Below are positions 3,895 through 55,031 of a DNA stretch of 64,000 nt, piece after piece (the first letter of the stretch is position 1; each line of letters begins with the position of its first letter). The DNA comes from Parcubacteria group bacterium Greene0416_39 (GTDB lineage Bacteria > Patescibacteriota > Minisyncoccia > Minisyncoccales > UBA10102): the NCBI GenBank assembly GCA_007375675.1, contig VMEU01000001.1:40458-104457 (forward strand), written 5' to 3'. The position numbers and the translations under genes were made by a program. The notes beneath the pieces are model-generated. The model was not told the origin of the DNA. It did not search any database and saw nothing but the letters and a program-made list of their open reading frames with translations.

Positions 3895-4860
3895 ATGAAT
3901 GTTCAGGGGTTGGTTGCCGAACTAAATCTTGCTGCAAAAGCGCGACAATACGGAGTTCCCTTATGGCAGCACCCGCAGTTCCTTTTCTTTGTGATGGGGG
4001 TTATCATCGCCGTTTCCAGCATCTTTTCGTATAGTTTGGGAAGGCGATACATCAGCGATCCTTACCTCGTTTCCCTTTCCGTTCTCTTCTTTACCGCGCT
4101 CTTCCTTGCCATTGCTTTTCTTATCACGAGAAGTTTTGAGAGATTGGCTGAAGCAGCAAGGTTAAAAACAGAGTTTTTGAACATAGTGTCTCATCAGCTC
4201 CGCTCGCCCTTGTCTAACCTGAAATGGACCTTGGAGGTGATGATGGAAGGAAAAAGTGAAAAAAGCGAGGCAGAAAAAGCAGAGTACTTCAGAATTCTCA
4301 AAGAGAACAGTGCCCGCATGCAAGAATTAGTGAATGACTTGCTCTTGGCTTCAAAGATTGAAGAAGGAAAACTTCAGTCAGAAAGAAAAGAATTCTCTTT
4401 GCTTGAGCTCGTGAAAGACGTGGCAGGAGAGTTTGCTCCTTGGACTCAAGCGTCAAACGTTACAATTGCGGTAGAAGGCGGATCACAGATCCAAAGAATT
4501 GTTTCAGATCCTTCTTTGGTGCGCCAGGTGCTTGGGAACCTCGTGGACAATGCCGTGCGCTACGCCTCGCAACAAGAAAGCGTTATTATAATTTCTTACA
4601 CAAAGCAAGGCAAGAACGTGAAGATTGAGGTGCAAGATAATGGCCTAGGCATTCCAGCCGGAGACCAGAAGTATATCTTTCAAAGATTTTTCCGATCCAG
4701 AAATGCTTCTCGCCAAGAAACCCAGGGGTCTGGCCTTGGCCTCTACATTGCCAAAGCCATGGTAAAGAGTTTAGGAGGAGACATAGGGTTTGAATCACAA
4801 GAACATAAAGGGTCGAAGTTTTGGTTCACTATTCCTTTTAACCAGAGTTCATCCGCATAA
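3895..4860 (+). CDS. Sensor histidine kinase (HisKA + HATPase_c)
   Basis: H-box FLNIVSHQLRSPLSN; G-boxes GLGLYIAKAMVKSLGG; N-terminal TM helices. Start taken at MNVQG, 6 nt after a TATAAT. Confidence 0.8.
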   Translation: MNVQGLVAELNLAAKARQYGVPLWQHPQFLFFVMGVIIAVSSIFSYSLGRRYISDPYLVSLSVLFFTALFLAIAFLITRSFERLAEAARLKTEFLNIVSHQLRSPLSNLKWTLEVMMEGKSEKSEAEKAEYFRILKENSARMQELVNDLLLASKIEEGKLQSERKEFSLLELVKDVAGEFAPWTQASNVTIAVEGGSQIQRIVSDPSLVRQVLGNLVDNAVRYASQQESVIIISYTKQGKNVKIEVQDNGLGIPAGDQKYIFQRFFRSRNASRQETQGSGLGLYIAKAMVKSLGGDIGFESQEHKGSKFWFTIPFNQSSSA

Positions 4861-8345: not shown

Positions 8346-8597
8346 ATGGGAACGCTTAATATAAGAATCGATAAAAACATAAAAACGAGAGCAGGAAAGA
8401 CACTTTCTGCTTTGGGTTTAGATACCTCAACCGCAGTGCGCATTTTCTTGCATCAAGTGGTGGCCGAGAAGGGGCTTCCCTTTACTCCCACAAGAAATTC
8501 TGCAACTATCCGTATGCAATGGGATAAAGAAGTTGCCATGGCCAAGGGGAATAGCCGCCGCTACAAAACCGCGAGGGAAGCATTAGCCGATCTTTAG
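8346..8597 (+). CDS. dinJ: DinJ/RelB-family antitoxin
   Basis: 83 aa; LNIRIDKNIKTRAGKTLSALGLDTSTAVRIFL is typical DinJ; 1-nt gap to a toxin ORF. Confidence 0.7.
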   Translation: MGTLNIRIDKNIKTRAGKTLSALGLDTSTAVRIFLHQVVAEKGLPFTPTRNSATIRMQWDKEVAMAKGNSRRYKTAREALADL

Positions 8598-8598
8598 A

Positions 8599-8883
8599 AT
8601 GTACAGCATTATCCGCACGAAAGCTTTTGAACGTTCCTACAAAAGGCTGAAGCAGTCAGGCATGAAAGAGCAGGTTATTGATAGTTTAAAGAATGTCATT
8701 GATACGTTGGCATCAGGTAAAACGCTAGCGTCAAACCATCGCGACCACAAGCTTACCGGGTATTTTAGCGAGTATCGTGAATGTCATGTACGACCAAACC
8801 TGCTTCTTGTATATCAAATTGATCACGGCAATCTCATACTCATACTCGTTGATATAGGATCGCATCCTTATTTATTTGGTTAA
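8599..8883 (+). CDS. yafQ: YafQ/RelE-family mRNA interferase toxin
   Basis: 94 aa; HRDHKLTG...ECHVRPNLLLVY...DIGSHPYLF matches YafQ catalytic motifs. Confidence 0.7.
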   Translation: MYSIIRTKAFERSYKRLKQSGMKEQVIDSLKNVIDTLASGKTLASNHRDHKLTGYFSEYRECHVRPNLLLVYQIDHGNLILILVDIGSHPYLFG

Positions 8884-12101: not shown

Positions 12102-12108
12102 GAGATAC

Positions 12109-12177
12109 ACCCCGTAGTGAAACTTTGACTTGCTTTCGCAAACGAAGTTTGGTCAAAGTTCTACTACAGGGTACAAT
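12109..12177 (+). promoter_or_regulatory. Conserved inverted-repeat leader element (copy 1) upstream of pilM
   Basis: CCCCGTAGTGAAACTTTG ... CAAAGTTCTACTACAGGG forms a ~16-bp outer stem. Near-identical outer arms occur at 54645-54712; a half copy at 35221-35240. Confidence 0.5.
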
Positions 12178-19277: not shown

Positions 19278-19730
19278 ATGAATTGCCCAATGTGTCAAAG
19301 TTCTTCAAAGGTTATAAACTCCAGGAGCGCAGACCATGGGAAAACCGTAAAAAGGCGCAGGGTTTGCATGAAATGCGCCAGGAGATTCACCACATATGAG
19401 CGCATAGAGCTTGTAAATGTCACGGTCTTAAAGCGCAGCGGGGCAAAAGAGCCTTACATGCGCCACAAGCTTCAGCTTGGGATGAGAAAGGCCTTGGAGA
19501 AGAGGCCGTATACCGAGCAGCAATTTGAAAGATTGGTCTCTGGGGCAGAAAATGATATTTTTAACAGGGAACACGATGTCATCTCTTCCGAACAAATTGG
19601 CCAGATTGTTCTTGCGCATTTGAAAGTATTTGATAAGGTTGCCTATCTGCGTTTTGCTTCCGTGTACCGGAGATTTGGGAGCACGAAAGCGTTTGAAAAA
19701 GAGATTGAAAAACTCGAAAAGGGAAAATGA
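19278..19730 (+). CDS. nrdR: Transcriptional repressor NrdR (zinc ribbon + ATP-cone)
   Basis: MNCPMCQSSSKVINSR...RRRVCMKCARRFTTYERIE; ATP-cone follows. Confidence 0.9.
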   Translation: MNCPMCQSSSKVINSRSADHGKTVKRRRVCMKCARRFTTYERIELVNVTVLKRSGAKEPYMRHKLQLGMRKALEKRPYTEQQFERLVSGAENDIFNREHDVISSEQIGQIVLAHLKVFDKVAYLRFASVYRRFGSTKAFEKEIEKLEKGK

Positions 19731-22700
19731 CTTCCATGCAAAAAAATCTTCTTGTACTCTCAAACAAAGAAAAGGGCGCGGTGAACGCCAGATTTTCTGA
19801 AAATGCTCTCAAGATGCTGCGCAAGCGCTATCTTGCTGTTGACGAGAAGGGAGTGCAGGAAACTGCAGCCGATATGTTTGCAAGAGTCGCAAGCGCGTTG
19901 GCAGCAGTGGAGAAAAACTACGGCAAGAAAGAACAGGATGTTAAAAAAGTCGCGCGGGATTTTTTTAACATCATGTCAACAAAAGAATACACTCCTGCGG
20001 GCCGCACGATCACCAATGGAGGAGGCGAAACCCCGGTTATTGCAAACTGCGTTGTCTTGCCTATTCATGATTCTATGGAGAGCATTTTTCAAACCCTCAA
20101 AGACGCGGCCTTGCTGCAGCAGGCAGGTTGCGGCCTTGGCTTTGATCTTTCTGAAATGCGGCCTGCTGACTTCCCTACAAGAAAATCTAGAGGGAGAGCT
20201 TCGGGTCCCGTTACTTTTTTGAAGGTGTATGACTATGCGTTTGGAACCATTAAGCAGCAGGGCAGGCACGGCGCGAATATGTCAATGATGAGGGTAGATC
20301 ACCCAGATGTTTTGGATTTTATTCATTGCAAAGAAGTGGAGGGTGAAATCCACAACTTCAACATTTCAGTCACCGTCACAGACGAGTTCATGGAACAGTT
20401 AGAGAAGAACCCCAACAAGCAGTGGTGGTGCGTATTCAATAACAAGAAATATAAGCCCAGAAAAGTGTTGCGCCATCCCAATGGGAGTGTGTACGGAACA
20501 GAGGAGGTAGATATTAGCGCAAAAGAGGTTTTTGACGAGTTGGTGAAAGGAGCGTGGACAAACGGAGAACCTGGCATTGCGTTTATTGACACGGTGAACA
20601 AAACCAATCCGCTTCCAGGTCTTGGCCCAATCGCAACGTCTAACCCGTGCGTGACAGGAGATACTCTCATACCCACTGAGCAAGGTTTTCTGACAATGGA
20701 GGAGCTCGTAGAGAGGTATGGCAAGGGCGGTGTCAAAATCGCAATCGATGTTCGTGTTCCCAAAACCATTGCCACTTCTCTTGTTGTGGAAAGTCTTATT
20801 GGCAATGGAGGAGAAGAAACAGTTCCTGTGCTGAATCTTTCGTTGTATGGAGAAGAAGGAGTGGGAGAAGTATCTAAAGCATGGAAGACAGGGGTGAAAG
20901 CAGTGTATAAGCTTACGACTCGTTCTGGCTACGAACTTGAAGCAACCGCGGAGCATGAAATTTTTACACCAAAAGGAAAGGTTCCTCTTGGGGAACTTCA
21001 GAAAGGAGATACGTTACTTCTTCAGTCGCGAGAAGGTCTTTGGAGCAACGAAGCGAAATTGCCCTTTACGTTTTCTAACGAGGTTCGAGGACGAAATGGC
21101 CACACGTATCGGTATAACTTTCCGACTGAATGGAGTCAACAGCTCGGGCAAGCCTTAGGATGGCTTATCGGAGACGGCTGGATACGAGAAAAACCAAAAC
21201 AAAACTGCGTAGGTTTTACCTTTGCAGAGGAAGATAAAAAAGTTTTACTGTATCTCAAAGAGATTTTAAACAAGTGGTATCGCAATAGCACTTCTCAAGA
21301 AATCAAAAGGCACAACGGAGTGTACCATTTAGTGTATGGTTCGAAAGATTTTATGCAATATATGAAGAACTTGGGAGTGAAAGCGGTACGTGCCCAAGGG
21401 AAAGAGGTGCCCTCTACTTTATGGAAAGCACCTAGAGAAGCAGTCATCGGATTTCTTCAGGGACTTTTTAGTTCCGACGGGACCATTAATATTTTTGAAC
21501 CAAATCAAACTCGGTATATCCGTCTCACCTCCAAGTCTGAGAAACTCCTCAAGGGAGTACAGCTCTTGCTACTGAATCTTGGCATTCGTTCAACCGTATA
21601 CAATAGAAGTAGGAAACCGAGTATGAAACTTGGATACCCCAACGACGGCGTACTCTTTGAGTTGCAGATTACGAAGACGAACATTCCGATATTCCTTAAG
21701 AAGATCGGATTTCTTGGAACCCATTACACAAAGAAAGCAGAGATACTTAGAACGTGCTCCTACTATCGAGAAACCTTTGAAGACAAGGTGAAAGAAATTC
21801 GGTTTGTTGGAACAAAGAAGGTGTATGACCTTACAGAATCCCTCTCCCATTCTTTGGTTGCAAATGGAATTGTCATATCAAATTGCGGCGAACAATATTT
21901 GCATCCGTATGACAACTGCAACTTGGGATCCATTAATCTTGCGGCATTTGTAAAACAGGGAAAAGTGGATTGGGCAAGACTCCGTTTTGTCACGAGAACC
22001 GCAACACGGCTCATGGACAATGTGATAGACGTTTTTGACTTTCCCGTAAAAGAAGTGACTGACTTAGCCAAGAATAACAGGAGGATTGGCTTGGGCATCA
22101 TGGGTTTTGCTGATATGCTCTATCAGCTTGGGGTGCGCTATGATTCCAAACAAGGATTTGCGTTAGGAGAAAAAGTTATGGGCTTTATTACTAATGAGGC
22201 CCATACAATGTCTGAGGAGTTGGCAAAAGAAAAAGGCGCATTTCCTAACATTGCAAAGAGCGTGTTTGCCAGATCCAAGAAAAAGATGCGCAACGCTGCC
22301 CTTACCACGGTTGCTCCCACAGGTTCTATCTCCATGATGTTTGACTGTTCTTCTGGCATTGAACCAAACTTTGCTCTTTCTTATGTGAAACAAGACAAAG
22401 ACGGCGTCCAATACCACTACCTTAACAAATACTTTGAGGAAGCGGTTGCCAAGTTGAAGCTTGCGGCAAAAGAAAAAGACGAGATTCTCCAGGAGGTTGT
22501 GGGAAAGGGGACCATACAGCATATTGGAAAGCTTCCAAAGGCATTGCGGGATACGTTCGTGATCTCCATGGATATTGTGGGACTTGACCATATGAAAATG
22601 CAGGCTGCGTTTCAGAAGCACGTTGATAACTCTATTTCCAAAACCGTCAACTTCCCAAATTCTGCGACCAGAGAAGATGTTGCCGGAAGTTTTGTAGCGG

Positions 22701-23377
22701 CTTGGAAGTTAGGGTGCAAATCAGCAACCGTGTATCGTGAAGGAAGCAGGGTGGTGCAGATTCTCAACCTTGGCACTGGAGAAAACCTTATTGCTCCCAC
22801 TGCGCTTGGAGTTGGGAAAGACAGCATAGAGAAACTCGACTTGCGCATGGACCAGCAACGTTTGGCCTCAAGGCCAAGGCCAGAGGTGATGACAGGCAAA
22901 ACCTACCGTGTGAAAACAGGGTACGGGAATCTATACGTTACCGTGAACAACGATGAAAAAGGAGTGCCTTTTGAGGTTTTTGCAACCATTGGGAAAAATG
23001 GAGGGTTTTTCCAGGAACAGTCAGAGGCCATATGCAGAATGATCTCTCTTGTGTTAAGAACAGGGGTAAAAATTGAAGAAGTGGTGGAGCAACTAAAGGG
23101 CATTAGAGGGCCAATGCCCATATTCACAGACAAAGGCACTATTCTTTCTCTGCCTGACGCCTTAGGCCGTATTCTTGAAGACCACGTGAAGTTTGCTCCA
23201 AGAGTGGAAGAAGCAGTTGCGAGGCCCGAGAGACAGGAAGTACTTCCTTTTATAGAAAAAAAACAGACCATTGCTGAAATGGGTTTTATGCCAGGATGCC
23301 CTGACTGCGGCTCCCCTTTACTGATGTCTGAAGGATGCATTAGCTGCAAGGAGTGCGGATTTAGCCGCTGTATGTAA
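19727..23377 (+). CDS. nrdJ: Class II (adenosylcobalamin-dependent) ribonucleotide reductase NrdJ, interrupted by an intein
   Basis: RNR catalytic motif split as ...ATSNP | intein | CGEQYLHPYDNCNLGSINL; C-terminal zinc ribbon CPDCG...CKECG; 1216 aa including a 412-aa intein. Confidence 0.9.
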   Translation: MTSMQKNLLVLSNKEKGAVNARFSENALKMLRKRYLAVDEKGVQETAADMFARVASALAAVEKNYGKKEQDVKKVARDFFNIMSTKEYTPAGRTITNGGGETPVIANCVVLPIHDSMESIFQTLKDAALLQQAGCGLGFDLSEMRPADFPTRKSRGRASGPVTFLKVYDYAFGTIKQQGRHGANMSMMRVDHPDVLDFIHCKEVEGEIHNFNISVTVTDEFMEQLEKNPNKQWWCVFNNKKYKPRKVLRHPNGSVYGTEEVDISAKEVFDELVKGAWTNGEPGIAFIDTVNKTNPLPGLGPIATSNPCVTGDTLIPTEQGFLTMEELVERYGKGGVKIAIDVRVPKTIATSLVVESLIGNGGEETVPVLNLSLYGEEGVGEVSKAWKTGVKAVYKLTTRSGYELEATAEHEIFTPKGKVPLGELQKGDTLLLQSREGLWSNEAKLPFTFSNEVRGRNGHTYRYNFPTEWSQQLGQALGWLIGDGWIREKPKQNCVGFTFAEEDKKVLLYLKEILNKWYRNSTSQEIKRHNGVYHLVYGSKDFMQYMKNLGVKAVRAQGKEVPSTLWKAPREAVIGFLQGLFSSDGTINIFEPNQTRYIRLTSKSEKLLKGVQLLLLNLGIRSTVYNRSRKPSMKLGYPNDGVLFELQITKTNIPIFLKKIGFLGTHYTKKAEILRTCSYYRETFEDKVKEIRFVGTKKVYDLTESLSHSLVANGIVISNCGEQYLHPYDNCNLGSINLAAFVKQGKVDWARLRFVTRTATRLMDNVIDVFDFPVKEVTDLAKNNRRIGLGIMGFADMLYQLGVRYDSKQGFALGEKVMGFITNEAHTMSEELAKEKGAFPNIAKSVFARSKKKMRNAALTTVAPTGSISMMFDCSSGIEPNFALSYVKQDKDGVQYHYLNKYFEEAVAKLKLAAKEKDEILQEVVGKGTIQHIGKLPKALRDTFVISMDIVGLDHMKMQAAFQKHVDNSISKTVNFPNSATREDVAGSFVAAWKLGCKSATVYREGSRVVQILNLGTGENLIAPTALGVGKDSIEKLDLRMDQQRLASRPRPEVMTGKTYRVKTGYGNLYVTVNNDEKGVPFEVFATIGKNGGFFQEQSEAICRMISLVLRTGVKIEEVVEQLKGIRGPMPIFTDKGTILSLPDALGRILEDHVKFAPRVEEAVARPERQEVLPFIEKKQTIAEMGFMPGCPDCGSPLLMSEGCISCKECGFSRCM
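20648..21883 (+). mobile_element. Intein in NrdJ with LAGLIDADG homing-endonuclease domain
   Basis: Begins Cys (CVTGDTLI, Hint block A); ends ...GIVISN with +1 Cys; two LAGLIDADG motifs LGWLIGDGWI and FLQGLFSSDGTI. In frame: 20648-19727=921 and 21884-19727=2157. Confidence 0.85.
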
Positions 23378-25969: not shown

Positions 25970-26251
25970 TGCCGCGGGGGTGAATTGAACACCCGACGCC
26001 AGCCTCTTCCAAAGGCCGTTTTGGACTATCTCATCTCCCTTGAAAGGGAGTTGGGCGCTATTTGCAGGATTATTGTTGGGACTCACCCGCTAGTCTCTAC
26101 ACCTTCCGAGAAACTACTACCCTTCTCGGCTTGGCTCGGGATTGATCGTCCCAGACGATTTTTCCCCGAATTCACCCAATTTTTCAATCCGCCTTACGAC
26201 GGAAAGCCCCAAAGAGTTTAGGGCTGCGCTCTACCACTGAGCTACCGCGGC
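25970..26251 (-). tRNA. tRNA-Phe(GAA) interrupted by a 210-nt group I intron (exons 26220-26251 and 25970-26009)
   Basis: 5' exon GCCGCGGTAGCTCAGTGGTAGAGCGCAGCCCT; 3' exon GAAGAGGCTGGCGTCGGGTGTTCAATTCACCCCCGCGGCA. Joined, the anticodon loop is CTGAAGA. Confidence 0.8.
26010..26219 (-). mobile_element. Group I self-splicing intron in the tRNA-Phe anticodon loop (between nt 33 and 34)
   Basis: P1 pairs exon AGCCCU with intron GGGGCU, with U.G at the 5' splice site. P/Q/R/S-like elements AATTCGGGGAAA, AATCCCGAGC, GTGTAGAGACTAGCG, GAGATAGTCC. Terminal omega-G. No ORF inside. Confidence 0.8.
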
Positions 26252-28827: not shown

Positions 28828-28900
28828 TGGGCGTGGATGGACTCGGACCATCGACCTCGGCCTTATAAGGACCTTGCTCTGACCACTGAGCTACACGCCC
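28828..28900 (-). tRNA. tRNA-Ile(TAT) candidate (AUA decoder); anticodon arm has a 27-43 A.G mismatch
   Basis: Acceptor GGGCGTG/CACGCCC; D-arm GCTC-AGTGGTCA-GAGC; anticodon stem AGGTC/GGCCG (4 pairs), loop CTTATAA; T-arm GATGG-TCCGAGT-CCATC; CCA encoded. Confidence 0.5.
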
Positions 28901-31900
28901 CCATTATACTTTTCTTGCCAATCAACCTTTCAAACTCTTCTCGCTCCAATGTTTCCTTTTCTATCAGGGCTTTGGCTATCTTGACAAGCGTTGGCCTTTT
29001 TTGTTTCAAAACGTTCTCCGCCTTTTTTCTCGCGACTTCTACAAGGCCAGATACCTCTTTATCTATTTCTTCGGCAAGTTTTTGGGAATAGTTCACATAT
29101 TCTCCAATGTGCGCGAACGGGTGCTCCTCCCTTTCTCCAAAAGTTACGGGTCCCAGCGATTCAGACATGCCGTATTCTTTCACGAGGCGCCGTGCAAGAT
29201 CTGAAGCCTGCTGAAGATCATTGCTCGCTCCCGTGGTCACATCTTTGAATACCAACTTCTCTGCGCAGTATCCTCCAAGAAACGTTGCGAGTTCATCCAA
29301 AAATTCTGCTCTGCTCTTTAAATGTTTTTCTTCTGAAGGGAGTTTCAAAGTGTATCCTCCAGCTCTTCCTCGGGATATGATGGAAACTTTGCGCACCGGG
29401 TCTGCGTGGGGGAGCGAAGAAGCAACCAAAGCATGGCCTGCTTCATGGTACGCGGTGATCTCTTTTTCTTTTTTGGAAAGAATGTGGCTTTTCCTTTCAG
29501 GGCCCAAGAGCACCTTGTCTATGGATTCCAGAAGTTCTTCTTGGGAGACTATGGTTTTGTTGCGCCTCGCAGTAAGAATTGCTGACTCGTTCATAAGGTT
29601 GGCAAGGTCTGCCCCTGAAAATCCTGGGGTTCTCTCTGCAATTTCCCGTAAAGAGGTTTTGGGAGCCAATGGTTTGCCCAAGGAATGAATCTTGAGGATT
29701 TCTTCCCTGTCATTCACGTCAGGAAGGTCAAGAACGATTCTTCGGTCAAAGCGTCCTGGCCTCAAAAGAGCAGAATCCAACACGTCAGGGCGATTGGTAT
29801 TGTGAAGTAGGATAGGGCTTTCTCCTCCAAAGAAAGCTTCATTCTCGCAGCCACAGAAATCGTAGACGTAACCGTCATAAGGCAACTTCCTGATCGACTT
29901 CACAATCGCTCGTTTCGTGCTTGCTTTTCCGATTTTTGGATCGAGGGGATTTTGTGTTTTCCCAAATCCAAGCCGATATGCCTTGGTTTCTTGGAGTGGC
30001 TTCCCATCCCTAATTTTTCTTCCCGCTTTCACCGTAAATTCACGAATATAGCTTTTGAATCCGTGCATTCGAGAAAGCCAGTTTAATCCAAGGATTAGAC
30101 GCTTGCTTACCGAAGTAAGCTCGAGGCGTCCTCGTGTATCGGTGTAACCGTCTCCTGCTGCATATCCTTTGAGAAATTCAGTGTAGTATTCCTTTGGAGC
30201 TTCAAAAAGGAACTGGGGCACCTGTTTATTTTTTGCGCCTTTCCCACAGTGAAACGCAAGGAAGCTTGCGACAGGCTTGCAGTGGTACACAATATTTATG
30301 GCGTTTTTGGTAATATGACGTTCCCGATCTGGTTCAAGGTGAAAGATGGTTTTCATCAGATATCTCACGTCTTCTATGTATTCCTTTTCCTTCTCATTGA
30401 AACAAAAATCGAGTTCTTTCCTGGCATAACCCTCGGCGGTATAGTATCCAAAAAGCCTCATCAATTCTGGGCTTACTTCCACTGTTTCTGGAAGTTGATC
30501 TTTATATTGGTAGTAATTCCTACTTAGCGCTCGCGGCACACAAATACCCTGTTGCCATTTTCCAATAGTTCTTTGAGAGAACCCCAGCATATTGCCAAGC
30601 TCTGTTTGCGACGTTTCTCCCTCATGAGTACGAGCAAATTGATACGCATACTCTACTGACTGAAAAGGCATAAAGAGTGGTTCCCATAGCTGGAGTTGGA
30701 GCTCGAGTTTCTGGCTAAACTTATGGCCCCGTATTTCTCTCCTGTTTTTATTGGTGCGATTTACTTTATATGGAAGATCTACAAGAATGTCCCCTGGTTT
30801 AATTTCACATACAGGTTTTGGAACCAGCCCTTGAGCATTCGTTCGTATAAATACAGAGTGATTCCCAGTAGTTCTGATAGTTCCTCCCATATATTCTACT
30901 TCGTAAATCTCCTGTACTTTGTGACGGAATACGCTCCGCACTTTCTTAAATGCGCTGTTCTGGAGATACGTCTTTTTTTGCGCAGAAAATCCTTTTCCAA
31001 TTTTCTTTTCAAACCCAAGCACCTCTAATCTTTGCGACGGTTTTTCTACTCCTTCTTCGCCCTCTTGATAGTAGGGGTCTATGACTTGATCGATAGGAAG
31101 AAGCTTATCCTCCCCATTTTCTCGAATTAGTACAGGAGTATCACCGGTAACGCTTGCACCCATCACTATGCGTTGATCGTCTCGCTCAAAGCCGTCCATT
31201 TCCACTAAGATTTGGTTTAAGGTTTGTTCTCGTTCCTCGTGTCCGCCCGTGAATCCAGAGCCCCTCGTGCGGCCAATGGCGTCTAATTCGTCAATAAAGA
31301 TAATGCTTCTCCCAGCCCTTTTTGCAGTAGAAAAGAGATCCCGAACTCTCGAGCTTCCCACACCCACGAACATTTCCACGAATTCAGAACCTGAAGCAGA
31401 AAAGAATGCGACTCCAGCTTCGTTGGCCACAGCTCTTGCCAACAGGGTTTTCCCTGTGCCGGGCGCCCCTACCAAAAGCACTCCTCTTGGGATGCGAGCT
31501 CCCATGTCTAGATACTTTTTTGGGTTCTTCAAAAAATCCACTACTTCCTGGAGCTCTTCTTTTGCTTCTTTGAGACCTGCAACGTCTTTGAACGTGACTT
31601 TTTCTTTTGTCTGGCCGTCTGCTCCAAATAACCTGGCGCGAGACTTTGTGAACTCAAACGCCTGCCCGAGTCCAGCTCTTGCCTGGCGGAACATCATCAA
31701 AAAGAAGAACACGAAAAAGAGCATGGGAAGAATCACAAACAGAAAAGGCGAAATCCAGGCCCCAATGCCGCCTTCCTTTCTCTGCTCAATTGTTACATTG
31801 TTTAATTGTTCTTTATCAACTCCTAAGTTGAGAAGCGTTTGGGAAAGAGAGGAATCAGACTCTTTGAGAGCAGCAACTTCAGAGCCGTCTTCCAAAGTTA

Positions 31901-32081
31901 CCTTGAGCGCAGTCCCCTCAAGAACAATGCTTTTGGTATTCCCCTTGTTGATGTCTTGCACAAGCTCGCTCAAGGAGATCTGCTTTTGAGCTTCAAACGG
32001 CCGTGCAAAAAGCGAAAACAGCGCCGAGAGCACCAGGAGCGCCACAAACGCAACAAGAAGGTTTTTAGAAAAGTTTTTCAT
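28863..32081 (-). CDS. ftsH: ATP-dependent zinc metalloprotease FtsH, interrupted by a 452-aa intein
   Basis: N-terminal TM; Walker [16 protein letters not shown]; Walker [10 protein letters not shown]; sensor-1 region split as IVMGA | intein | TNRPDVLD; protease HEAGHALVA. 3' end overlaps the tRNA at 28828-28900. Confidence 0.9.
29799..31154 (-). mobile_element. Intein in the FtsH AAA module (Ser1 ... Asn, +1 Thr) with degenerate LAGLIDADG-like endonuclease region
   Basis: [15 protein letters not shown] start; ...[10 protein letters not shown]|TNRPD end; [14 protein letters not shown] and [13 protein letters not shown] motifs; 1356 nt, in frame. Without it FtsH is ~620 aa. Confidence 0.8.
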
Positions 32082-35160: not shown

Positions 35161-35220
35161 ACCGTTTTACTTATACTCTCCCTTGCGCACGCTGTCAATA
35201 ATTGATATACTGAAGTATTA

Positions 35221-35240
35221 ATTCAAATTTCTACTACAGG
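35221..35240 (+). promoter_or_regulatory. Half copy (3' arm) of the pilM leader element, 3 nt before the ATG at 35243
   Basis: CAAATTTCTACTACAGGG compared with CAAAGTTCTACTACAGGG at 12160-12177 and 54695-54712. Confidence 0.4.
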
Positions 35241-35242
35241 GT

Positions 35243-35896
35243 ATGCAGATATTTTGGAAAGGCCAGGCGTGCTTTCAGATTCTCACATCCCGCGGCAAAG
35301 ACAGCCAGCTTTCAATTGTTGTTGATCCTTACGAGGAATCCATTGGGTTAAAACTTCCAAGCCTTCAGGCCGACATTCTTTTGGTTACGCACAATCATTT
35401 CGACCACAACAATGCAAAAGACGTGAAAGGATCCCCCTTTGTCATTTCAAATCCAGGAGAGTATGACGTGAAAGGCGTGTTCGTGCAAGGGATCTTTTCA
35501 TTTCATGACGATACCCAAGGCAAAGAAAGAGGCAGTAACACCATATACCGTATAGAAGTTGAGGGCATGAGGATTTGTCATTTGGGCGATTTGGGCCAAA
35601 AAGAGCTTACCCAAGAACAGCTCAACCAAATAGGTGATGTGGACATTTTGTTTGTTCCAGTAGGGGGCGTGTATACCATAGACGGCAAAGAAGCTGCGCG
35701 CATTGTAAGCCAGCTTGAGCCAAAGATTGTTATCCCCATGCACTATGCATTGCCAAAGCTCAAGGTGAAGCTTGAAGGCGTGGAAGAGTTTCTCAAACCC
35801 ATGGGAGCAAAAAATGCAGTGGCTGAACCCAAACTCCTAGTGAAAGAACGTGATCTTGTGAATGAAGAAAGGAGAGTGGTGGTCTTGACGCCATGA
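35243..35896 (+). CDS. MBL-fold metal-dependent hydrolase (UPF0173/YtkL-like)
   Basis: LLVTHNHFDHNN metallo-beta-lactamase motif; 217 aa. Confidence 0.75.
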   Translation: MQIFWKGQACFQILTSRGKDSQLSIVVDPYEESIGLKLPSLQADILLVTHNHFDHNNAKDVKGSPFVISNPGEYDVKGVFVQGIFSFHDDTQGKERGSNTIYRIEVEGMRICHLGDLGQKELTQEQLNQIGDVDILFVPVGGVYTIDGKEAARIVSQLEPKIVIPMHYALPKLKVKLEGVEEFLKPMGAKNAVAEPKLLVKERDLVNEERRVVVLTP

Positions 35897-38800
35897 TCAA
35901 AGAAAACAAACCGAGCGCCATAGGCAAGGTTGAGCCAAGAGAAATTGTGCAGGAGATGAAAACTGCGTATTTAGATTACGCAATGTCTGTTATTGTTGCA
36001 AGAGCTTTGCCTGACGTAAGAGATGGATTAAAACCAGTTCACCGGAGAATTCTGTACGCAATGTACGAAATGGGGTTGACCCACGGAGCGAAATTAAGAA
36101 AATCAGCTGGCGTGGTAGGAGAAGTGCTTGGAAAGTACCATCCTCACGGAGACATTTCCGTGTACGACGCTTTGGTTCGCATGGCCCAAGATTTTTCCAT
36201 GCGCTACCCCTTAATAGACGGCCAAGGAAATTTTGGTTGTTTCACAAAAGATACCGAAATCCAACTGACCGATGGGAGAGCCCTCTCTTTTGGACAACTA
36301 ATTGAGGAACAGAAAAAAGGGGAAAGGCATTGGACCTTCTCATTTAATCAAAAAGAAGAAAAAATTGAGATAGCGGAAATTAAGCGTCCCCGCCTGACGA
36401 GAGAAAACGCAGAATTAGTGGAGGTGGTGCTTGATAACGGAGCACAAATTCGATGTACCCCAGATCATCGATTTATGCTTCAAAACGGAACATACCAGGA
36501 AGCCCGTTATCTTTCTCAGGGGGATTTTTTGATGTCGATGCTGGAATATACAAAAAACAAAACATCCGCTTTTGAGGCGGAAGTTTTGGGAGTCGCAGAT
36601 AGTACCGGTGCTTCGGAGTTGTCGTCTATTCCTATACTAGCAAACCAAGCAGTTCTGTCAAGTGTGTCCACGGAGCCGTGGACGGCACGGGAATTGCACC
36701 CGTCGACTTCTGGACGACAACTCCGAAGCCGGGACTACCCGCCGCCCACGGCCCCTCTATTATACCTACGAAAAGTAGAATGTATCAAGGTGAACAATGT
36801 AAGATTCCTTGAAGAAAAGACAGATGTGTACGACATCACAGTAGATCCTTGGCATAACTTTGCACTTGCAGCAGGTATTTTTGTTCACAACTCAATTGAC
36901 GATGACCCTGCGGCGGCAATGCGTTATACGGAAAGCCGCATGTCTCGGGCAGGGGAAGAACTGCTCGAAGACATTGAGAAAAATACCGTTGACTTCATTG
37001 ATACATACGACGGAATGAGGCAAGAACCCAAGGTTCTTCCTTCTCCTTTGCCCCAACTTTTGTTGAACGGCACCTTGGGAATCGCGGTGGGAATGGCAAC
37101 CAACATTCCTCCGCATAACTTAGCAGAGGTTGCAGACGCAGTAGCCTTCCTTATTGAAAATCCCAAGGCAGACACCGAAGATTTATTTCAATTTATCAAG
37201 GGGCCGGATTTCCCGACTGGCGGAACCATTTTTAACAAACAAGAAATGATTGCGGGCTACTCACAGGGCAAAGGCCCTATTGTGGTGCGAGGCAAAGCAG
37301 AAGTGGTGGAGAATGACAAGAAGAATCAGATCATCATTAGCGAGATTCCTTTCCAGGTGACCAAGTCTACTCTTGTGGAACAGTTTGCAAACCTTGTGCA
37401 GGAAAAGAAAATTGAGGGAATTAGAGACATCCGCGACGAGTCAGACAAAGACGGCATGCGAATTGTGTTTGACCTTGCAAGAGAAGCCCAGCCCCAGAAA
37501 ATTTTAAACCGGCTCTACAAATTTTCAGACCTGCAAAAAACATTTCACTTAAACCTTCTTGCCTTGGTAGACGGCATTCAGCCCAAGGTTCTTTCTTTGG
37601 CTGAAATCCTTCTGCTTTTTCTTGAGCACAGAAGGAATGTGGTTTCAAGGAGAACCCAGTGGGAGTTAGACAGAGCCAAAGAGAGAGCGCATATCTTAGA
37701 AGGCCTTGTAAAATGTCTTGGCAGCATTGACGAAGTTATTAAAATTATCAGACGGTCAGATGACCGGGACGACGCCAAAAAGAACCTCATGGCGCGCTTT
37801 AAGCTTACTGAAATCCAGGCAAACGCAATCCTAGACACAAAGCTTAGCCAACTGGCAAAGCTTGAGCGAAAGAAAATAGAAGAAGAATTAGTTGCGCTGA
37901 AAGCAACAATCAAAGAACTAACCTTAATTCTTGCAAACCCCAAGGAAATTGACCGCATCATTGCAAAAGAACTTGAGGTCGCCAAGGCAGCCTATGGAGA
38001 CCAGAGGAGAACCAAAGTGGTGGTGCAGGGCCTTGGCGAAATTGCAGAAGAAGATTTAATCCCCCAGGAAGACACGGTCATCACCTTAACCCAGGGAGGG
38101 TACATTAAGCGTATTAATCCCGCCACCTACAAAATTCAAAAGAGAGGAGGAAAGGGCATTGTGGGCATGAAAACCATGGGGGAAGACATTGTAGAGCACT
38201 TCCTGTATGGCCAGACCCACGACTCTTTAATGGTGTTTACCGATTCAGGCAAGGTGTTTCAAATACCCGTGTATGAAGTCGCAGAGGGAACAAGGGTTTC
38301 TAAGGGCAGAGGTCTTCTCAACTTTATTGACCTTACTCCTCAAGACAAGGTATTGACCCTTTTTGCCATTGGCAAAGAAGACATTGTGGCTGGCAAAAAA
38401 TATCTGGCCATGATTACCAAAGACGGAATAATGAAAAAAACCCTTTTGGACGACTTCAAAAACGTGCGGCGTTCAGGACTTATTGCAGTAACCCTTAAAA
38501 AGGGAGATCGTCTGCAGGGAGCGCAAAAAACCACTGGCGAAGACGATATCATTATTGTGACAAAACACGGCAAATCCATTCGCTTCAAAGAATCGCAGGT
38601 GAGAGCAATGGGAAGGCAGGCCGCAGGAATCCACGCCATACGCCTCAAAAAAGGGGATGAGGTTATGGGGATGGACATTATCCCTGGTTTGCCGTCGCGA
38701 CTCTTTATACTTTCAGAAAATGGGTATGGGAAAAGCACTGACGTGAAAGAATACCGGATACAGAGCAGGGGAGGGTCTGGAATCAAAACCGCAAACGTTA

Positions 38801-38994
38801 CCTCAAAAACAGGCAATCTCGTGTTTGCCAAAGTTCTTGAGGGCCCAGAAGAAGACTTAATCGTGATTTCAAGAAAAGGCCAGGTAATACGAACTCCTGT
38901 TACGTCTATTCCTAAGATAAGCCGCTCCACGCAAGGCGTGCGTTTCATGAGGCTTGATGAGGGAGACAAGGTTGTGTCGGCCGCTTGCATGTAA
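35893..38994 (+). CDS. gyrA: DNA gyrase subunit A, interrupted by a 218-aa mini-intein
   Basis: RALPDVRDGLKPVHRRILYAM; GQGNFG | intein | SIDDDPAAAMRYTES; C-terminal beta-pinwheel repeats; 815 aa without the intein. Confidence 0.9.
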   Translation: MIKENKPSAIGKVEPREIVQEMKTAYLDYAMSVIVARALPDVRDGLKPVHRRILYAMYEMGLTHGAKLRKSAGVVGEVLGKYHPHGDISVYDALVRMAQDFSMRYPLIDGQGNFGCFTKDTEIQLTDGRALSFGQLIEEQKKGERHWTFSFNQKEEKIEIAEIKRPRLTRENAELVEVVLDNGAQIRCTPDHRFMLQNGTYQEARYLSQGDFLMSMLEYTKNKTSAFEAEVLGVADSTGASELSSIPILANQAVLSSVSTEPWTARELHPSTSGRQLRSRDYPPPTAPLLYLRKVECIKVNNVRFLEEKTDVYDITVDPWHNFALAAGIFVHNSIDDDPAAAMRYTESRMSRAGEELLEDIEKNTVDFIDTYDGMRQEPKVLPSPLPQLLLNGTLGIAVGMATNIPPHNLAEVADAVAFLIENPKADTEDLFQFIKGPDFPTGGTIFNKQEMIAGYSQGKGPIVVRGKAEVVENDKKNQIIISEIPFQVTKSTLVEQFANLVQEKKIEGIRDIRDESDKDGMRIVFDLAREAQPQKILNRLYKFSDLQKTFHLNLLALVDGIQPKVLSLAEILLLFLEHRRNVVSRRTQWELDRAKERAHILEGLVKCLGSIDEVIKIIRRSDDRDDAKKNLMARFKLTEIQANAILDTKLSQLAKLERKKIEEELVALKATIKELTLILANPKEIDRIIAKELEVAKAAYGDQRRTKVVVQGLGEIAEEDLIPQEDTVITLTQGGYIKRINPATYKIQKRGGKGIVGMKTMGEDIVEHFLYGQTHDSLMVFTDSGKVFQIPVYEVAEGTRVSKGRGLLNFIDLTPQDKVLTLFAIGKEDIVAGKKYLAMITKDGIMKKTLLDDFKNVRRSGLIAVTLKKGDRLQGAQKTTGEDDIIIVTKHGKSIRFKESQVRAMGRQAAGIHAIRLKKGDEVMGMDIIPGLPSRLFILSENGYGKSTDVKEYRIQSRGGSGIKTANVTSKTGNLVFAKVLEGPEEDLIVISRKGQVIRTPVTSIPKISRSTQGVRFMRLDEGDKVVSAACM
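36238..36891 (+). mobile_element. Mini-intein in GyrA (no endonuclease domain), inserted between GQGNFG and SIDDDP
   Basis: CFTKDTEIQLTDGR (block A) ... FALAAGIFVHN|S (blocks F/G); in frame (345 and 990 nt from the CDS start); low-complexity linker in the middle. Confidence 0.8.
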
Positions 38995-51901: not shown

Positions 51902-52906
51902 ATGGCTGAAATGGTAAATTCTAAAAGGGCAAAGTTCCCTAGAGGGCTACAAAGAAGGTTCATTCAGAAAGTTCTCATAAACCTTTCTTTTGAGAAAGTC
52001 GCAGGTCTTTGTGGAGTTTCTCAGCGTACCATAAGAGATTGGCGCCGCGAAAAGTTTTTAATGGATTTTAGTGCCGTCAAGGTATTATGCAACAGAGCAA
52101 AGCTGCCATTCCCGCAACATATCAAGCTCAAGGATCGTTATTGGTATACTTCAAAAGGAGCCAAGTATGGCTGGAGTTTGGTGCTCAAAAAATATGGGAG
52201 GATTCCTTTAGATGAAGAGTATCGTAAAGAGAAATGGTATGAATGGTGGGAACGGGAGGGAAGGTATAAAAGGCATCCTATCATAAACGTTTCCAAACCA
52301 ATCCGAAAACCCGCTTTTTCCAAGGAGCTTGCCGAATTTGTAGGTATTGTGTTAGGTGATGGTGGCATAAGTAAAAGGCAGATTACGGTATCTTTACACA
52401 GTATCGATGACAAAGAATATTCACATTATGTTTCTGCATTAATCAAAAAGCTTTTCCTTGTTCCTGTTTCAATTCGTCCAGATAAAAACGCTAAAGTTGT
52501 AGATCTTGTTATTTCTCGTACGGAGTTGATACGTTTCTGTACCCAGACATTAGGCTTACGAATCGGCAACAAAGTAAAACAGCAAGTAGATGTTCCTCAT
52601 TGGATTAAACACAATAAGAGCTATATTCTTGCCTGCACCAGGGGACTTGTTGATACCGATGGTTCCGTATATCTTCACAGATACAAGGTAAATGGGAAGT
52701 GGTATACGTATTCAAAACTTTCGTTTTCTAATCGTTCCATGCCACTTCTTCAGTTTGTGCTTTGTACCTTTAAAACGCTTGGCATGAATCCTCGTTTAAC
52801 CAAGTATAACGAGGCCGTACGTTTAGAAAGTAAAAACGACATGAAATCATATTTTGGTTTAATAGGAACTCATAACCCGAAATATTTGAAGAAATACAGG
52901 AATTAG
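51902..52906 (+). CDS. Free-standing LAGLIDADG homing endonuclease (two motifs)
   Basis: FVGIVLGDGGISKRQ and ACTRGLVDTDGSVYLH LAGLIDADG motifs; 334 aa; divergent from the nested tRNA locus 70 nt away. Confidence 0.75.
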   Translation: MAEMVNSKRAKFPRGLQRRFIQKVLINLSFEKVAGLCGVSQRTIRDWRREKFLMDFSAVKVLCNRAKLPFPQHIKLKDRYWYTSKGAKYGWSLVLKKYGRIPLDEEYRKEKWYEWWEREGRYKRHPIINVSKPIRKPAFSKELAEFVGIVLGDGGISKRQITVSLHSIDDKEYSHYVSALIKKLFLVPVSIRPDKNAKVVDLVISRTELIRFCTQTLGLRIGNKVKQQVDVPHWIKHNKSYILACTRGLVDTDGSVYLHRYKVNGKWYTYSKLSFSNRSMPLLQFVLCTFKTLGMNPRLTKYNEAVRLESKNDMKSYFGLIGTHNPKYLKKYRN

Positions 52907-54565: not shown

Positions 54566-54644
54566 CAGTGTAATAAATTCGCAGAGTTGTTGCAAAGTTC
54601 TTGACATGGTATACTGATGCGGTAATCATTTCCAAACCCCGTAG

Positions 54645-54712
54645 TGAAACTTTGGCATGTGGTTCCCAAAGGAAACACATCGTTGCTGAAAGCAGCCAAA
54701 GTTCTACTACAG
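54645..54712 (+). promoter_or_regulatory. Conserved inverted-repeat leader element (copy 2) upstream of the second pilus cluster
   Basis: CCCCGTAGTGAAACTTTGG ... CCAAAGTTCTACTACAGGG with a different internal hairpin pair; preceded by TTGACA at 54600. Confidence 0.5.
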
Positions 54713-54769
54713 GGAAAGGTCGAGAGGAATATAGCAGTGATGCAAGATATTTTTTCGTAAAATCGAACT

Positions 54770-54922
54770 ATGAACAAGAAAGTCCTTATCATCGGCGTTA
54801 TTGTAGTTATTGCGGTGGTGGTTTACTTAATGCAAGGTCAAGGCGGCACAGGAACTCCAACGCCAACCCCAACACCAACCCCAACAGAAGCCCCAGCTCC
54901 AGAACCAACACCTGCTCAGTAG
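54770..54922 (+). CDS. Small membrane protein with Pro/Thr-rich tail (50 aa), hypothetical
   Basis: MNKKVLIIGVIVVIAVVVYLMQGQGGTGTPTPTPTPTPTEAPAPEPTPAQ; below the ORF-track cut-off. Confidence 0.35.
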   Translation: MNKKVLIIGVIVVIAVVVYLMQGQGGTGTPTPTPTPTPTEAPAPEPTPAQ

Positions 54923-55031
54923 AATTGAAAGTTTATGCACTTAGAAGCCGAGCTCCTAATTAAGGAGCTCGGCTTCTTAAGTTTGTTATGGTATGTAAAT
55001 TTCTAATGGGATGAGGTATGATATACTATAC

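Follow-up and report, generated by a model that had tools for sequence, protein, structure and literature searches.

Probable MITE-like insertions at promoters of two pilM operons and an MBL-gyrA operon in a Parcubacteria genome, with GIY-YIG nuclease elements as candidate autonomous relatives

Introduction

The Correia elements of Neisseria and the ERIC and RUP elements are MITEs: they are small and non-coding, carry terminal inverted repeats and target site duplications, and lie between genes near promoters, for which they can contribute elements; their transcripts form hairpins. REP sequences, which contain GTAG/CTAC, and REPINs are extragenic imperfect palindromes whose inverted doublets form long hairpins and which are mobilised in trans; REPINs occur in hundreds of copies, have no target site duplication and depend on a RAYT gene. 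Insertion sequences of the IS1380 family make 4-5-bp duplications and have CC termini. Integron attC sites have conserved imperfect inverted repeats with conserved unpaired bases around a variable centre. We know of no HUH or integron integrase reaction that produces duplications of variable sequence. Homing endonuclease genes such as T4 seg and I-TevI encode a GIY-YIG catalytic domain, which is also found in UPF0213/YhbQ and Slx1, together with an added DNA-binding domain; each targets a single cognate site, recombination repair is their means of spread, and inverted-repeat ends and duplications are lacking. The genomes of CPR/Parcubacteria are tiny and are thought to be poor in classical insertion sequences.

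A first-pass annotation of a Parcubacteria contig described a long inverted repeat upstream of pilM in two type IV pilus clusters and read it as a conserved leader at equivalent positions, suited to co-regulate the two pilus systems. Here, the repeats are compared with close relatives and with a wider family, and are very probably MITE-like, non-autonomous transposable elements that represent lineage-specific insertions into promoter and 5' regions, with GIY-YIG elements as the likely autonomous members.

Materials and methods

The window is the whole stretch of DNA that was analysed, 64,000 nt of contig VMEU01000001.1 (positions 40,458 to 104,457, forward strand) of Parcubacteria group bacterium Greene0416_39, the closest named relatives of which are Wildermuthbacteria. 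Arms were located with the left-arm 17-mer (up to three mismatches) and with a weight matrix built from 264 arms, each compared with shuffled sequence. Family members were collected by an exact scan for CAAANTTCTACTACAGGG in one genome per species, which gave 59 loci, and by an independent metagenome scan with the left arm, which gave at least 120 loci corresponding to at least 96 unique elements, mostly of 60-85 bp. Loci are designated by L numbers. Direct repeats were compared with permuted flanks. Pre-insertion sites were rebuilt by deleting the element and one repeat, and were compared with random positions. Insertions, duplications, empty sites, family distribution, target bias and GIY-YIG-bearing members were treated as observations.

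Results

Two inverted-repeat elements and one solo right arm (35222-35241) are present in the window (Table 1). Copy 1 occupies 12110-12171 (62 bp), and its last base lies 12 nt 5' of the pilM-1 ATG (12184). Copy 2 occupies 54637-54714 (78 bp), and its arms close with GGC/GCC. The solo right arm ends 1 nt 5' of the ATG (35243) of an MBL-fold hydrolase gene. The first-pass annotation had recognised the arm sequences at both pilM loci and the half-copy at the MBL gene, and its coordinates led to the right loci; the limits had to be corrected to those given here, and the spacings of 17 nt to the pilM-1 ATG and 3 nt to the MBL ATG were overestimates. Its gene context was accurate: one type IV pilus cluster encodes PilB, PilC, pilins and PilMNO, the other PilMNO, PilB, PilT and PilC, and the MBL-fold hydrolase gene lies 5' of gyrA. 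The site of copy 1 is intra-operon, in a -10 box, and about 300 nt separate copy 2 from the downstream pilM-2, with a small ORF and a terminator-like hairpin in between.

The left-arm 17-mer gave four matches in the window with 0.24 expected, and none of 100 shuffles gave as many. The weight matrix recovered exactly five window arms at 28-35 bits, with no further arm above 8 bits in the window and a best score of 17 in the shuffles. As annotated earlier, the arms have the same imperfections in both copies (pair 4 is C.A, pair 10 G.U and pair 11 A.C when read on the + strand), and the interiors, which have no sequence relation, fold into hairpins of their own, one in copy 1 and two in copy 2. 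Just inside the arms, there is one compensatory change between the copies (GAC/GTC versus GGC/GCC).

Table 1. Coordinates of the elements, duplications and promoter-like sites in the window
Feature	Position	Strand	Remarks
Copy 1, left target site duplication TACA	12106..12109	+	Single TACA and no element in L063 and L064
Copy 1, left arm (terminal inverted repeat) CCCCGTAGTGAAACTTTGAC	12110..12129	+	Weight-matrix score 34.8 bits
Copy 1, 22-nt interior that forms a small hairpin	12130..12151	+	From folds
Copy 1, right arm GTCAAAGTTCTACTACAGGG	12152..12171	+	Weight-matrix score 32.6 bits
Right TACA duplication (12172-12175), opening the -10-like hexamer TACAAT	12172..12177	+	Empty sites of relatives read TACAAT-N6-ATG
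Native extended -10-like TGaTATACT of the MBL-gyrA operon	35203..35211	+	Aligns with TGgTATAAT and TGaTAGAAT of relatives
Extra DNA of about 25-30 bp, missing in relatives	35212..35241	+	Alignment with L069, L070 and L071
TATG flank, including the MBL start codon (35243)	35242..35245	+	Typical duplication of start-codon insertions
Promoter-like TTGACA-17-AATCAT, 5' of copy 2	54601..54629	+	Kept in L066 and L068, which have no element
Extended -10-like TGgTATACT inside the promoter-like site 5' of copy 2	54607-54615	+	
Copy 2, left target site duplication AAA	54634..54636	+	L066, L067 and L068 are empty here and have one AAA (..cattcccAAAggtcgagagg..)
Copy 2, left arm CCCCGTAGTGAAACTTTGGC	54637..54656	+	30.2 bits
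Copy 2, interior of 38 nt with two small hairpins	54657..54694	+	From folds
Copy 2, right arm GCCAAAGTTCTACTACAGGG	54695..54714	+	28.0 bits
Right AAA duplication, then native leader motif AAAGGTCGAGAGGA	54715..54728	+	Motif present in element-free relatives

The RNA folds of copies 1 and 2 have energies of -30.3 and -36.5 kcal/mol (z = -6.3 and -4.6), those of the opposite strand are at least as good (-32.3 and -42.8 kcal/mol), and the DNA folds reach -14.4 and -23.0 kcal/mol. Rfam at gathering thresholds gave no match for the elements across the whole window, and at E values up to 10 only chance miRNA and snoRNA matches were returned at the two loci. The first-pass annotation had leaned away from a riboswitch, and that judgement holds because Rfam has no match; riboswitches and other structured cis-regulatory RNAs were rejected on this result together with the empty orthologous sites described below and the equal folding of both strands. 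An intrinsic terminator was rejected, since there is no U tract and neither element was picked up in the terminator scan; the right arms are followed by TACAAT.. in copy 1 and AAAGGT.. in copy 2.

All three window positions have intact empty counterparts in the closest relatives, whose PilM and MBL proteins are 79-92% identical. At pilM-1, relatives whose PilM is 79-84% identical have the upstream gene and pilM 16-21 nt apart and read ..GAATAGGCGA-TACA-ATAGAACTATG (GGCGA-TACA-ATAGAACTATG) where the window has TACA[62 bp]TACA. At pilM-2, relatives at 85-89% identity read cccAAAggtcgagagg, that is, ..TAATCATTCCC-AAA-GGTCGAGAGG.., and their one AAA corresponds to AAA[78 bp]AAA in the window. At the MBL gene, relatives at 84-88% identity have TGnTAnAAT-N5-8-ATG and no arm; in the alignment their extended -10-like box lies 5-8 nt 5' of the ATG, and the window has the extra bases including the arm. 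This extra DNA consists of a short AT-rich remnant gaagTATTAATt and the solo right arm TTCAAATTTCTACTACAGGG (35222-35241; 29.2 bits), and in sequence it looks like a 5'-truncated element of the large start-codon class, the right ends of which read ..TTATAAATTAATTGTCAAAnTTCTACTACgGGG|TATG. The Pfam match of the MBL protein runs from residue 2 on. A search for the arm in relatives, proposed earlier as a check on the leader, found 0 arms in 62 kb of a relative's syntenic 89-kb contig, and about 20 kb outside the window, from the same or a nearly identical genome, added none. Judged from these comparisons, the elements arrived after the split from the nearest sampled relatives and in this lineage only.

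The reading as a dedicated cis-regulatory leader, an RNA hairpin or operator that co-regulates both type IV pilus operons, draws on the presence of an element 5' of both pilM genes in the window and on stable helices with common mismatches. It was rejected because the orthologous sites are empty, which by itself largely refutes it. In addition, the two positions are not equivalent, one being in the operon's -10 box and the other about 300 nt 5' of its pilM gene, the arms are flanked by duplications, Rfam has no match, and the same family of arms stands at dozens of unrelated genes, among them infA, infC, rpsL, metK and tRNA genes. The conserved leader and the co-regulation of the two pilus systems are therefore highly improbable.

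In the genome scan, about 40 of the 59 loci are in Patescibacteria MAGs (Nomurabacteria, Paceibacterota, Parcubacteria, Nealson-, Uhr- and Buchananbacteria, with some labelled Saccharibacteria), and nearly all of these combine the right arm with a CCCYGTAGTGAAAnTTT-type left arm. Element sizes were 37-38 bp, i.e. arms only (n = 20), 62-81 bp (n = 15), 120-142 bp (n = 8) and 316 bp (n = 1). Altogether, other Parcubacteria/CPR genomes and metagenomes contain at least about 140 distinct elements, 37-320 bp long, that are bounded by the 20-bp arms. On the sequences collected, the family is common in Parcubacteria/CPR bacteria, and it appears to be undescribed: published descriptions of the element family were not found in a literature coverage that is incomplete, so its novelty is provisional. 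A phage or plasmid origin was rejected, as blastn against plasmid and phage collections gave no match and the matches in viral contigs were a coding-sequence coincidence with no right arm.

Direct repeats of 4-5 bp flank 32 of 43 elements in the genome set (4 bp in 19 and 5 bp in 13, with 3.3 and 2.5 expected from permuted flanks). In the metagenome set, repeats of at least 4 bp flank 72 of 96 elements among the matches listed (10.2 +/- 2.9 with permuted flanks). Simple extension of the palindrome is ruled out because duplications such as TGTA|TGTA, TTATA|TTATA, TACA|TACA and CAAG|CAAG are non-palindromic; the flanks are direct and not inverted repeats, with 13 direct versus 1 inverted at 5 bp. 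Several elements are nested in the loop of another and have a duplication of their own (e.g. L088 with CTTTG). The neighbouring genes are diverse across the family and include infA, infC, rpsL, lysS, a second aminoacyl-tRNA synthetase gene, metK, parA, hpf, rodA, tRNA 3' ends, many genes for small membrane or secreted proteins, pilM and pilins. The window elements are assigned to the MITE-like class because the same arms bound many elements with direct repeats, nesting and unrelated neighbour genes.

A likeness to REP sequences had been pointed out in the first-pass annotation and is real as far as repeated palindromes, conserved arms and variable centres go. The corresponding explanation is that the elements are REP/REPIN palindromes moved by RAYT (HUH tyrosine transposase), or else attC-like or invertible-promoter recombination sites. 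The arms do contain GTAG/CTAC, their centres vary, and the conserved tandem mismatch could mark a structure-specific site. Against this, the variable-sequence duplications are confirmed by empty sites, the copy number is low (three sites in the approximately 84 kb examined), and neither a RAYT gene, an integrase nor a cassette array was found nearby; no Y1/HUH (RAYT) gene was seen among the window proteins scanned. Membership in REP/REPIN-RAYT systems was rejected on the duplications and copy number, integron attC sites on the ends (CCCCG..CAGGG) and on the lack of an integrase among the neighbouring proteins, and an invertible promoter on the compact elements, where only 2-4 nt separate the arms and inversion would be meaningless. 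This explanation is extremely improbable in either form.

The arms are nearly invariant across many genomes, and the interiors and flanks diverge. In at least 107 of 125 unique elements, 17-18 of the 20 arm positions are complementary. Pair 14 covaries across the 125 (A-T in 52, T-A in 39, C-G in 28), pair 4 is C-G in 73, C.A in 35 and T-A in 11, and the G.T/A.C asymmetry of pairs 10 and 11 is kept in 121-123. The near-invariant arms and the kept asymmetry suggest selection on the arms, possibly including a function at the level of the host. In a host-use explanation, which is compatible with a mobile origin, the elements are now used by the cell: the arms bind a factor, or the hairpin serves as mRNA stabiliser, RNase III site or terminator, and the pilus operons and MBL-gyrA share a regulatory input. 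In addition to the arm conservation, it can be argued from the very stable hairpins, from the orthologous elements L017 and L041, which keep identical arms and in which a compensatory change from G-C to A-T preserves the hairpin of the interior, from the -35-like TGGTCA that copy 1 places 16 bp 5' of TACAAT, and from the recurrent pilM and pilin neighbours. The latter are found in at least seven independent cases, above a naive random expectation (two in the window, one common to L020 and L034, and L054, L108 and L124 are included). However, arm conservation is also expected of a family mobilised by a sequence-specific enzyme, both strands fold equally well, the compensatory pair is a single one, no candidate binding protein is known, and the insertions are lineage-specific, with close relatives having the same pilus operons without the element. 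Host use is thus regarded as unlikely, and insertion of mobile elements remains the preferred account of the three window sites.

The rebuilt sites show a strong bias. The -35 consensus TTGACW is overlapped by 22 of 101 rebuilt sites versus 1.4% of random positions, and 25 of 101 versus 4.4% of random positions are inside a -10-like hexamer with a start codon after N5-8. Of the compact elements, 19 of 20 restore a -10 hexamer, N5-9 and start codon, with an extended TGnTAnnnT box in about half. TATG stands at both ends of eight elements of 120-150 bp, and the second ATG serves the downstream gene as its start codon. The native leader motif next to copy 2, AAAGGTCGAGAGGA, is a recurrent insertion site that flanks elements in L054, L031, L044, L085, L105, L108, L124 and L135. 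The three window sites fit the bias: copy 1 has duplicated the first four bases of TACAAT, 6 nt 5' of the pilM-1 ATG, copy 2 sits a few bases 3' of the -10 of TTGACA-17-AATCAT, at about the transcription start, and at the MBL gene TATG directly follows the arm. The bias may reflect either target choice by the enzyme or survival of those insertions that spared the promoter. A common sequence without positional preference had been named as the outcome that would speak against the leader; the arm is indeed repeated, but it does prefer promoters.

A gene is found between the arms in a few family members. L055 is a 316-bp element with exact family arms, a TAAAA duplication and an 88-aa ORF that fills the space between the arms; it shares a Nomurabacteria MAG with three small copies (L017, L036 and L051). 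In L153, the element measures 390 bp; its arms are closely related, its duplication is TAAT, and besides a homologous ORF of 86 aa it contains a 73-bp copy nested within it. L124 is a decayed GIY-YIG-bearing copy with a CATG duplication. These three, one of them decayed, are the only GIY-YIG-bearing elements with family arms that were found. The ORFs encode single-domain GIY-YIG nucleases (Pfam PF01541, E = 4e-16 to 1e-17), and the residues Y5, Y16, G18, R26, H30 and E50 are invariant in seven sequences. Among solved structures, the nearest are Slx1 and the UPF0213 proteins 1ywl and 1zg2, all with weak E-values (0.03-0.25). Related ORFs lie between other CCC-initiated inverted repeats in L149 (CCCCGTAGGACAAC, duplication TATG), L045 (TCCCGTTATAGACA, duplication TGAA) and L165 (CCCCCACACCA, duplication TGAA). 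The likeness of the arms follows the identity of the proteins: at 63-78% identity the arms are the same, at 55% only CCCCGTAG is common, and at 52% or less the arms are different. In L149, L045 and L124, the nuclease ORF begins at the ATG of the left duplication and runs through the arm, and the ATG of the right duplication is the start of the host gene; such start-codon insertions appear to hijack the initiation signals of the host gene for the nuclease ORF.

Other sources of a mobilising enzyme were searched for in the same data. Among 404 arms in 1.35 Mb, a search for arm-bounded elements of 0.5-5 kb with a duplication yielded only L034 and L153; L034 was rejected as a long element, being two separate compact elements, and L153 led to the GIY-YIG element. 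An IS481-like ORF beside the L097 element is outside the arms and was judged coincidental. In the fetched loci, GIY-YIG is the only gene located between a single arm pair with a duplication. Neither an autonomous copy nor a GIY-YIG gene was found in the window or in about 20 kb beyond it in the same or a near-identical genome, and tblastn of the GIY-YIG proteins against the large-class and L154 elements gave nothing significant (best E = 0.2). A protein-based scan of viral contigs gave one GIY-YIG gene, with no obvious repeats. No published description of bacterial GIY-YIG genes bounded by inverted repeats and duplications was found in the literature covered, which is incomplete.

These data bear on whether the elements are ordinary MITEs moved by a DDE transposase, e.g. 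an IS1380-like one, with GIY-YIG as a passenger or an independent selfish gene. Terminal inverted repeats with 4-5-bp duplications are the classic DDE signature, GIY-YIG-bearing copies are very few, and to our knowledge there are no transposases among the GIY-YIG enzymes, no strand transfer by them and no mechanism by which such a nuclease would make a 4-5-bp duplication; four GIY-YIG enzymes leave short 3' overhangs. On the other side, no long arm-bounded element was found among the 404 arms in 1.35 Mb, no transposase is encoded among the window proteins, the sole gene found in an arm pair with a duplication is GIY-YIG, which recurs with several inverted-repeat families, and GIY-YIG protein similarity parallels arm similarity. 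A DDE transposase as the mover is rather doubtful, with a real share of the probability nonetheless. From its position and its covariation with the arms, the leading candidate for a mobilising enzyme is the GIY-YIG gene, on few examples. Tentatively, and a little short of even chances, the GIY-YIG elements could represent an unrecognised class of prokaryotic transposon, 316-390 bp long, whose sole gene encodes an approximately 86-aa single-domain GIY-YIG nuclease.

Discussion

In the proposed sequence of events, an element with 20-bp terminal inverted repeats and a short variable interior of small hairpins inserted in this lineage at three promoter or 5' regions, with target site duplications of 3-4 bp. 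Copy 1 entered the first four -10 bases of a leaderless-type pilM-1 promoter, copy 2 a position at about the transcription start of the small-ORF/pilM-2 operon promoter, and a now-truncated copy the start codon of the MBL-gyrA operon. The GIY-YIG protein would cut element ends and targets and mobilise small copies in trans. The inverted repeats that open with CCCC may be what it recognises, perhaps in the form of an extruded hairpin or a cruciform; with target cuts staggered by about 4 nt, it could carry both its own element and a swarm of derivatives of 37-160 bp to promoter hexamers and start codons.

The inserted hairpins may alter expression. TACAAT lies 6 nt 5' of the pilM-1 ATG (12184), a leaderless-type layout, and the promoter scan reported TGGTCA-16-TACAAT, with the -35-like hexamer supplied by copy 1; the pair may function as a promoter. 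Copy 1 left the -10 and ATG of pilM-1 intact and replaced the upstream DNA, placing TGGTCA 16 bp upstream, and any read-through transcript from the upstream pilin genes would carry an intercistronic hairpin of -30 kcal/mol. In the small-ORF/pilM-2 transcript, copy 2 would contribute a hairpin of about -36 kcal/mol close to the 5' terminus of the leader. The MBL transcript, leaderless-type in relatives, would here have a leader that ends in an arm. That both pilM operons carry an element reflects target preference or chance and no dedicated regulatory design, and co-regulation of the pilus operons is at most a side effect. These effects do not demonstrate an input common to the operons, and nothing indicates that pilus control is the reason for which the elements were selected.

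A tempting regulatory story for the two pilus operons is removed in this way, since the shared leader is parasitic DNA. By landing repeatedly in -35 and -10 boxes and start codons, a family of such very small elements would contribute significantly to the rewiring of expression in CPR/Parcubacteria, and false leaders, N-termini and small ORFs would enter annotations as errors. If the GIY-YIG protein mobilises the elements, it would be a new class of enzyme for prokaryotic cut-and-paste elements, and the GIY-YIG element would be among the smallest self-contained mobile elements known. The candidate GIY-YIG partner deserves follow-up.

Compared with known systems, the elements have the features of MITEs: the copies are 62 and 78 bp long in a family whose small members have 37-160 bp, only spurious ORFs run across them, and they have terminal inverted repeats, variable target site duplications, empty sites, and dispersed and nested copies. 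As for an autonomous relative, no DDE-type element was found, and the 316-390-bp GIY-YIG elements have the same or closely related arms. The family shares with the Correia, ERIC and RUP elements the architecture, intergenic location and transcript hairpins described above. It differs from them in that its duplication is 4-5 bp and variable and not TA, its sizes go down to 37 bp, i.e. two arms alone, its arms are nearly invariant across many Parcubacteria genomes, it markedly prefers -35/-10 hexamers and start codons, and its candidate partner is a GIY-YIG nuclease and not a DDE transposase. With REPs and REPINs it has in common the extragenic imperfect GTAG palindromes, but unlike REPINs it has duplications, empty sites and a low copy number. 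The likeness to integron attC sites is in the imperfect inverted repeats, variable centre and unpaired bases; R''/L''/L'/R' boxes and a terminal GTTRRRY core are lacking, and duplications are present. IS1380-type insertion sequences resemble the family in duplication length and in ends that open with CC, but no DDE gene lies between the family arms, and the ends of ISEcp1 are, we presume, unrelated to the arm sequence. With homing endonuclease genes, the GIY-YIG elements share the catalytic domain and the organisation in which a nuclease is the sole gene of a selfish element; they were not classed as such genes, having a single domain of 86-94 aa, many different sites, and inverted repeats with duplications.

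The sequence AAAGGTCGAR was found as 48 unique occurrences in the 1.37 Mb scanned, three of them in pilin-gene leaders, and in 11 of the 48 the mobile element, a MITE-like palindrome with 20-bp terminal inverted-repeat arms, was inserted immediately 5' of the motif. AAAGGTCGAR may be a conserved 5'-leader signal. Many Parcubacteria loci carry it 6 to 20 nt 3' of -10-like boxes and 20 to 60 nt 5' of start codons, and it is also present in relatives without the mobile element. Features and their positions are listed in the table; L-numbers denote loci from other genomes or metagenomes.

Where the element is inserted at a start codon, the host AUG lies 1 nt 3' of the 20-bp helix, without a Shine-Dalgarno sequence. 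Several of these element interiors end, immediately 5' of the right arm, in AT-rich -10-like boxes suggestive of a promoter directed outward. Between L096 and L103, and within similar pairs, the order of the two hairpin modules of the interior differs against a fixed asymmetry of the arms, a pattern that resembles an inversion of the interior between the arms or an exchange of the arms. One truncated element, in L173, is followed by three tandem units of ~75 bp (aagaacc..gcgagaaccttgattcgctaaggtata..).

Features and their positions
Feature	Location	Context
AAAGGTCGAR sites	window 54715-54728; L054, L066-L068, L085, L105, L108, L124, L135, others	
Start-codon insertions	L025, L029, L006, L046, L101, L166, L172, L181	
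Truncated element, then tandem units	L173, about 4400-4650 (reverse strand)	
GIY-YIG genes in other inverted repeats	L149, L045, L165, L112, L124:5041-5295, L125	
relB/yafQ toxin-antitoxin pair	window 8346-8883	between pilC and pilin genes, cluster 1
Small ORF, 50 aa, proline/threonine-rich	window 54770-54922	5' of the 54943-54977 hairpin
15-bp perfect hairpin, terminator-like	window 54943-54977	between small ORF and pilM-2
Group I intron	window 26000-26229 (-)	
Intein-containing genes (ribonucleotide reductase, FtsH, GyrA)	window 19727-23377, 28863-32081 (-), 35893-38994	
LAGLIDADG ORF	window 51902-52906	

In pilus cluster 1, the closest relative (L061) has no relB/yafQ pair at the corresponding position. 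The terminator-like hairpin preceding pilM-2 is replaced in relatives by another hairpin at the equivalent position. Besides the mobile palindromes, the window is dense in further selfish elements. Among them are a free-standing LAGLIDADG ORF, a group I intron that Rfam scores at 64.6 bits, and the inteins of ribonucleotide reductase, FtsH and GyrA.

Small GIY-YIG genes of 82 to 96 aa are also enclosed by other CCC-initial inverted-repeat families (CCCCGTAGGACAAC, TCCCGTTATAGACA, CCCCCACACCA, and CCCCGCACCTTTTAAGC). Duplications of 4 bp were observed at several of these genes, and in some of them the duplicated host ATG is the ORF start.
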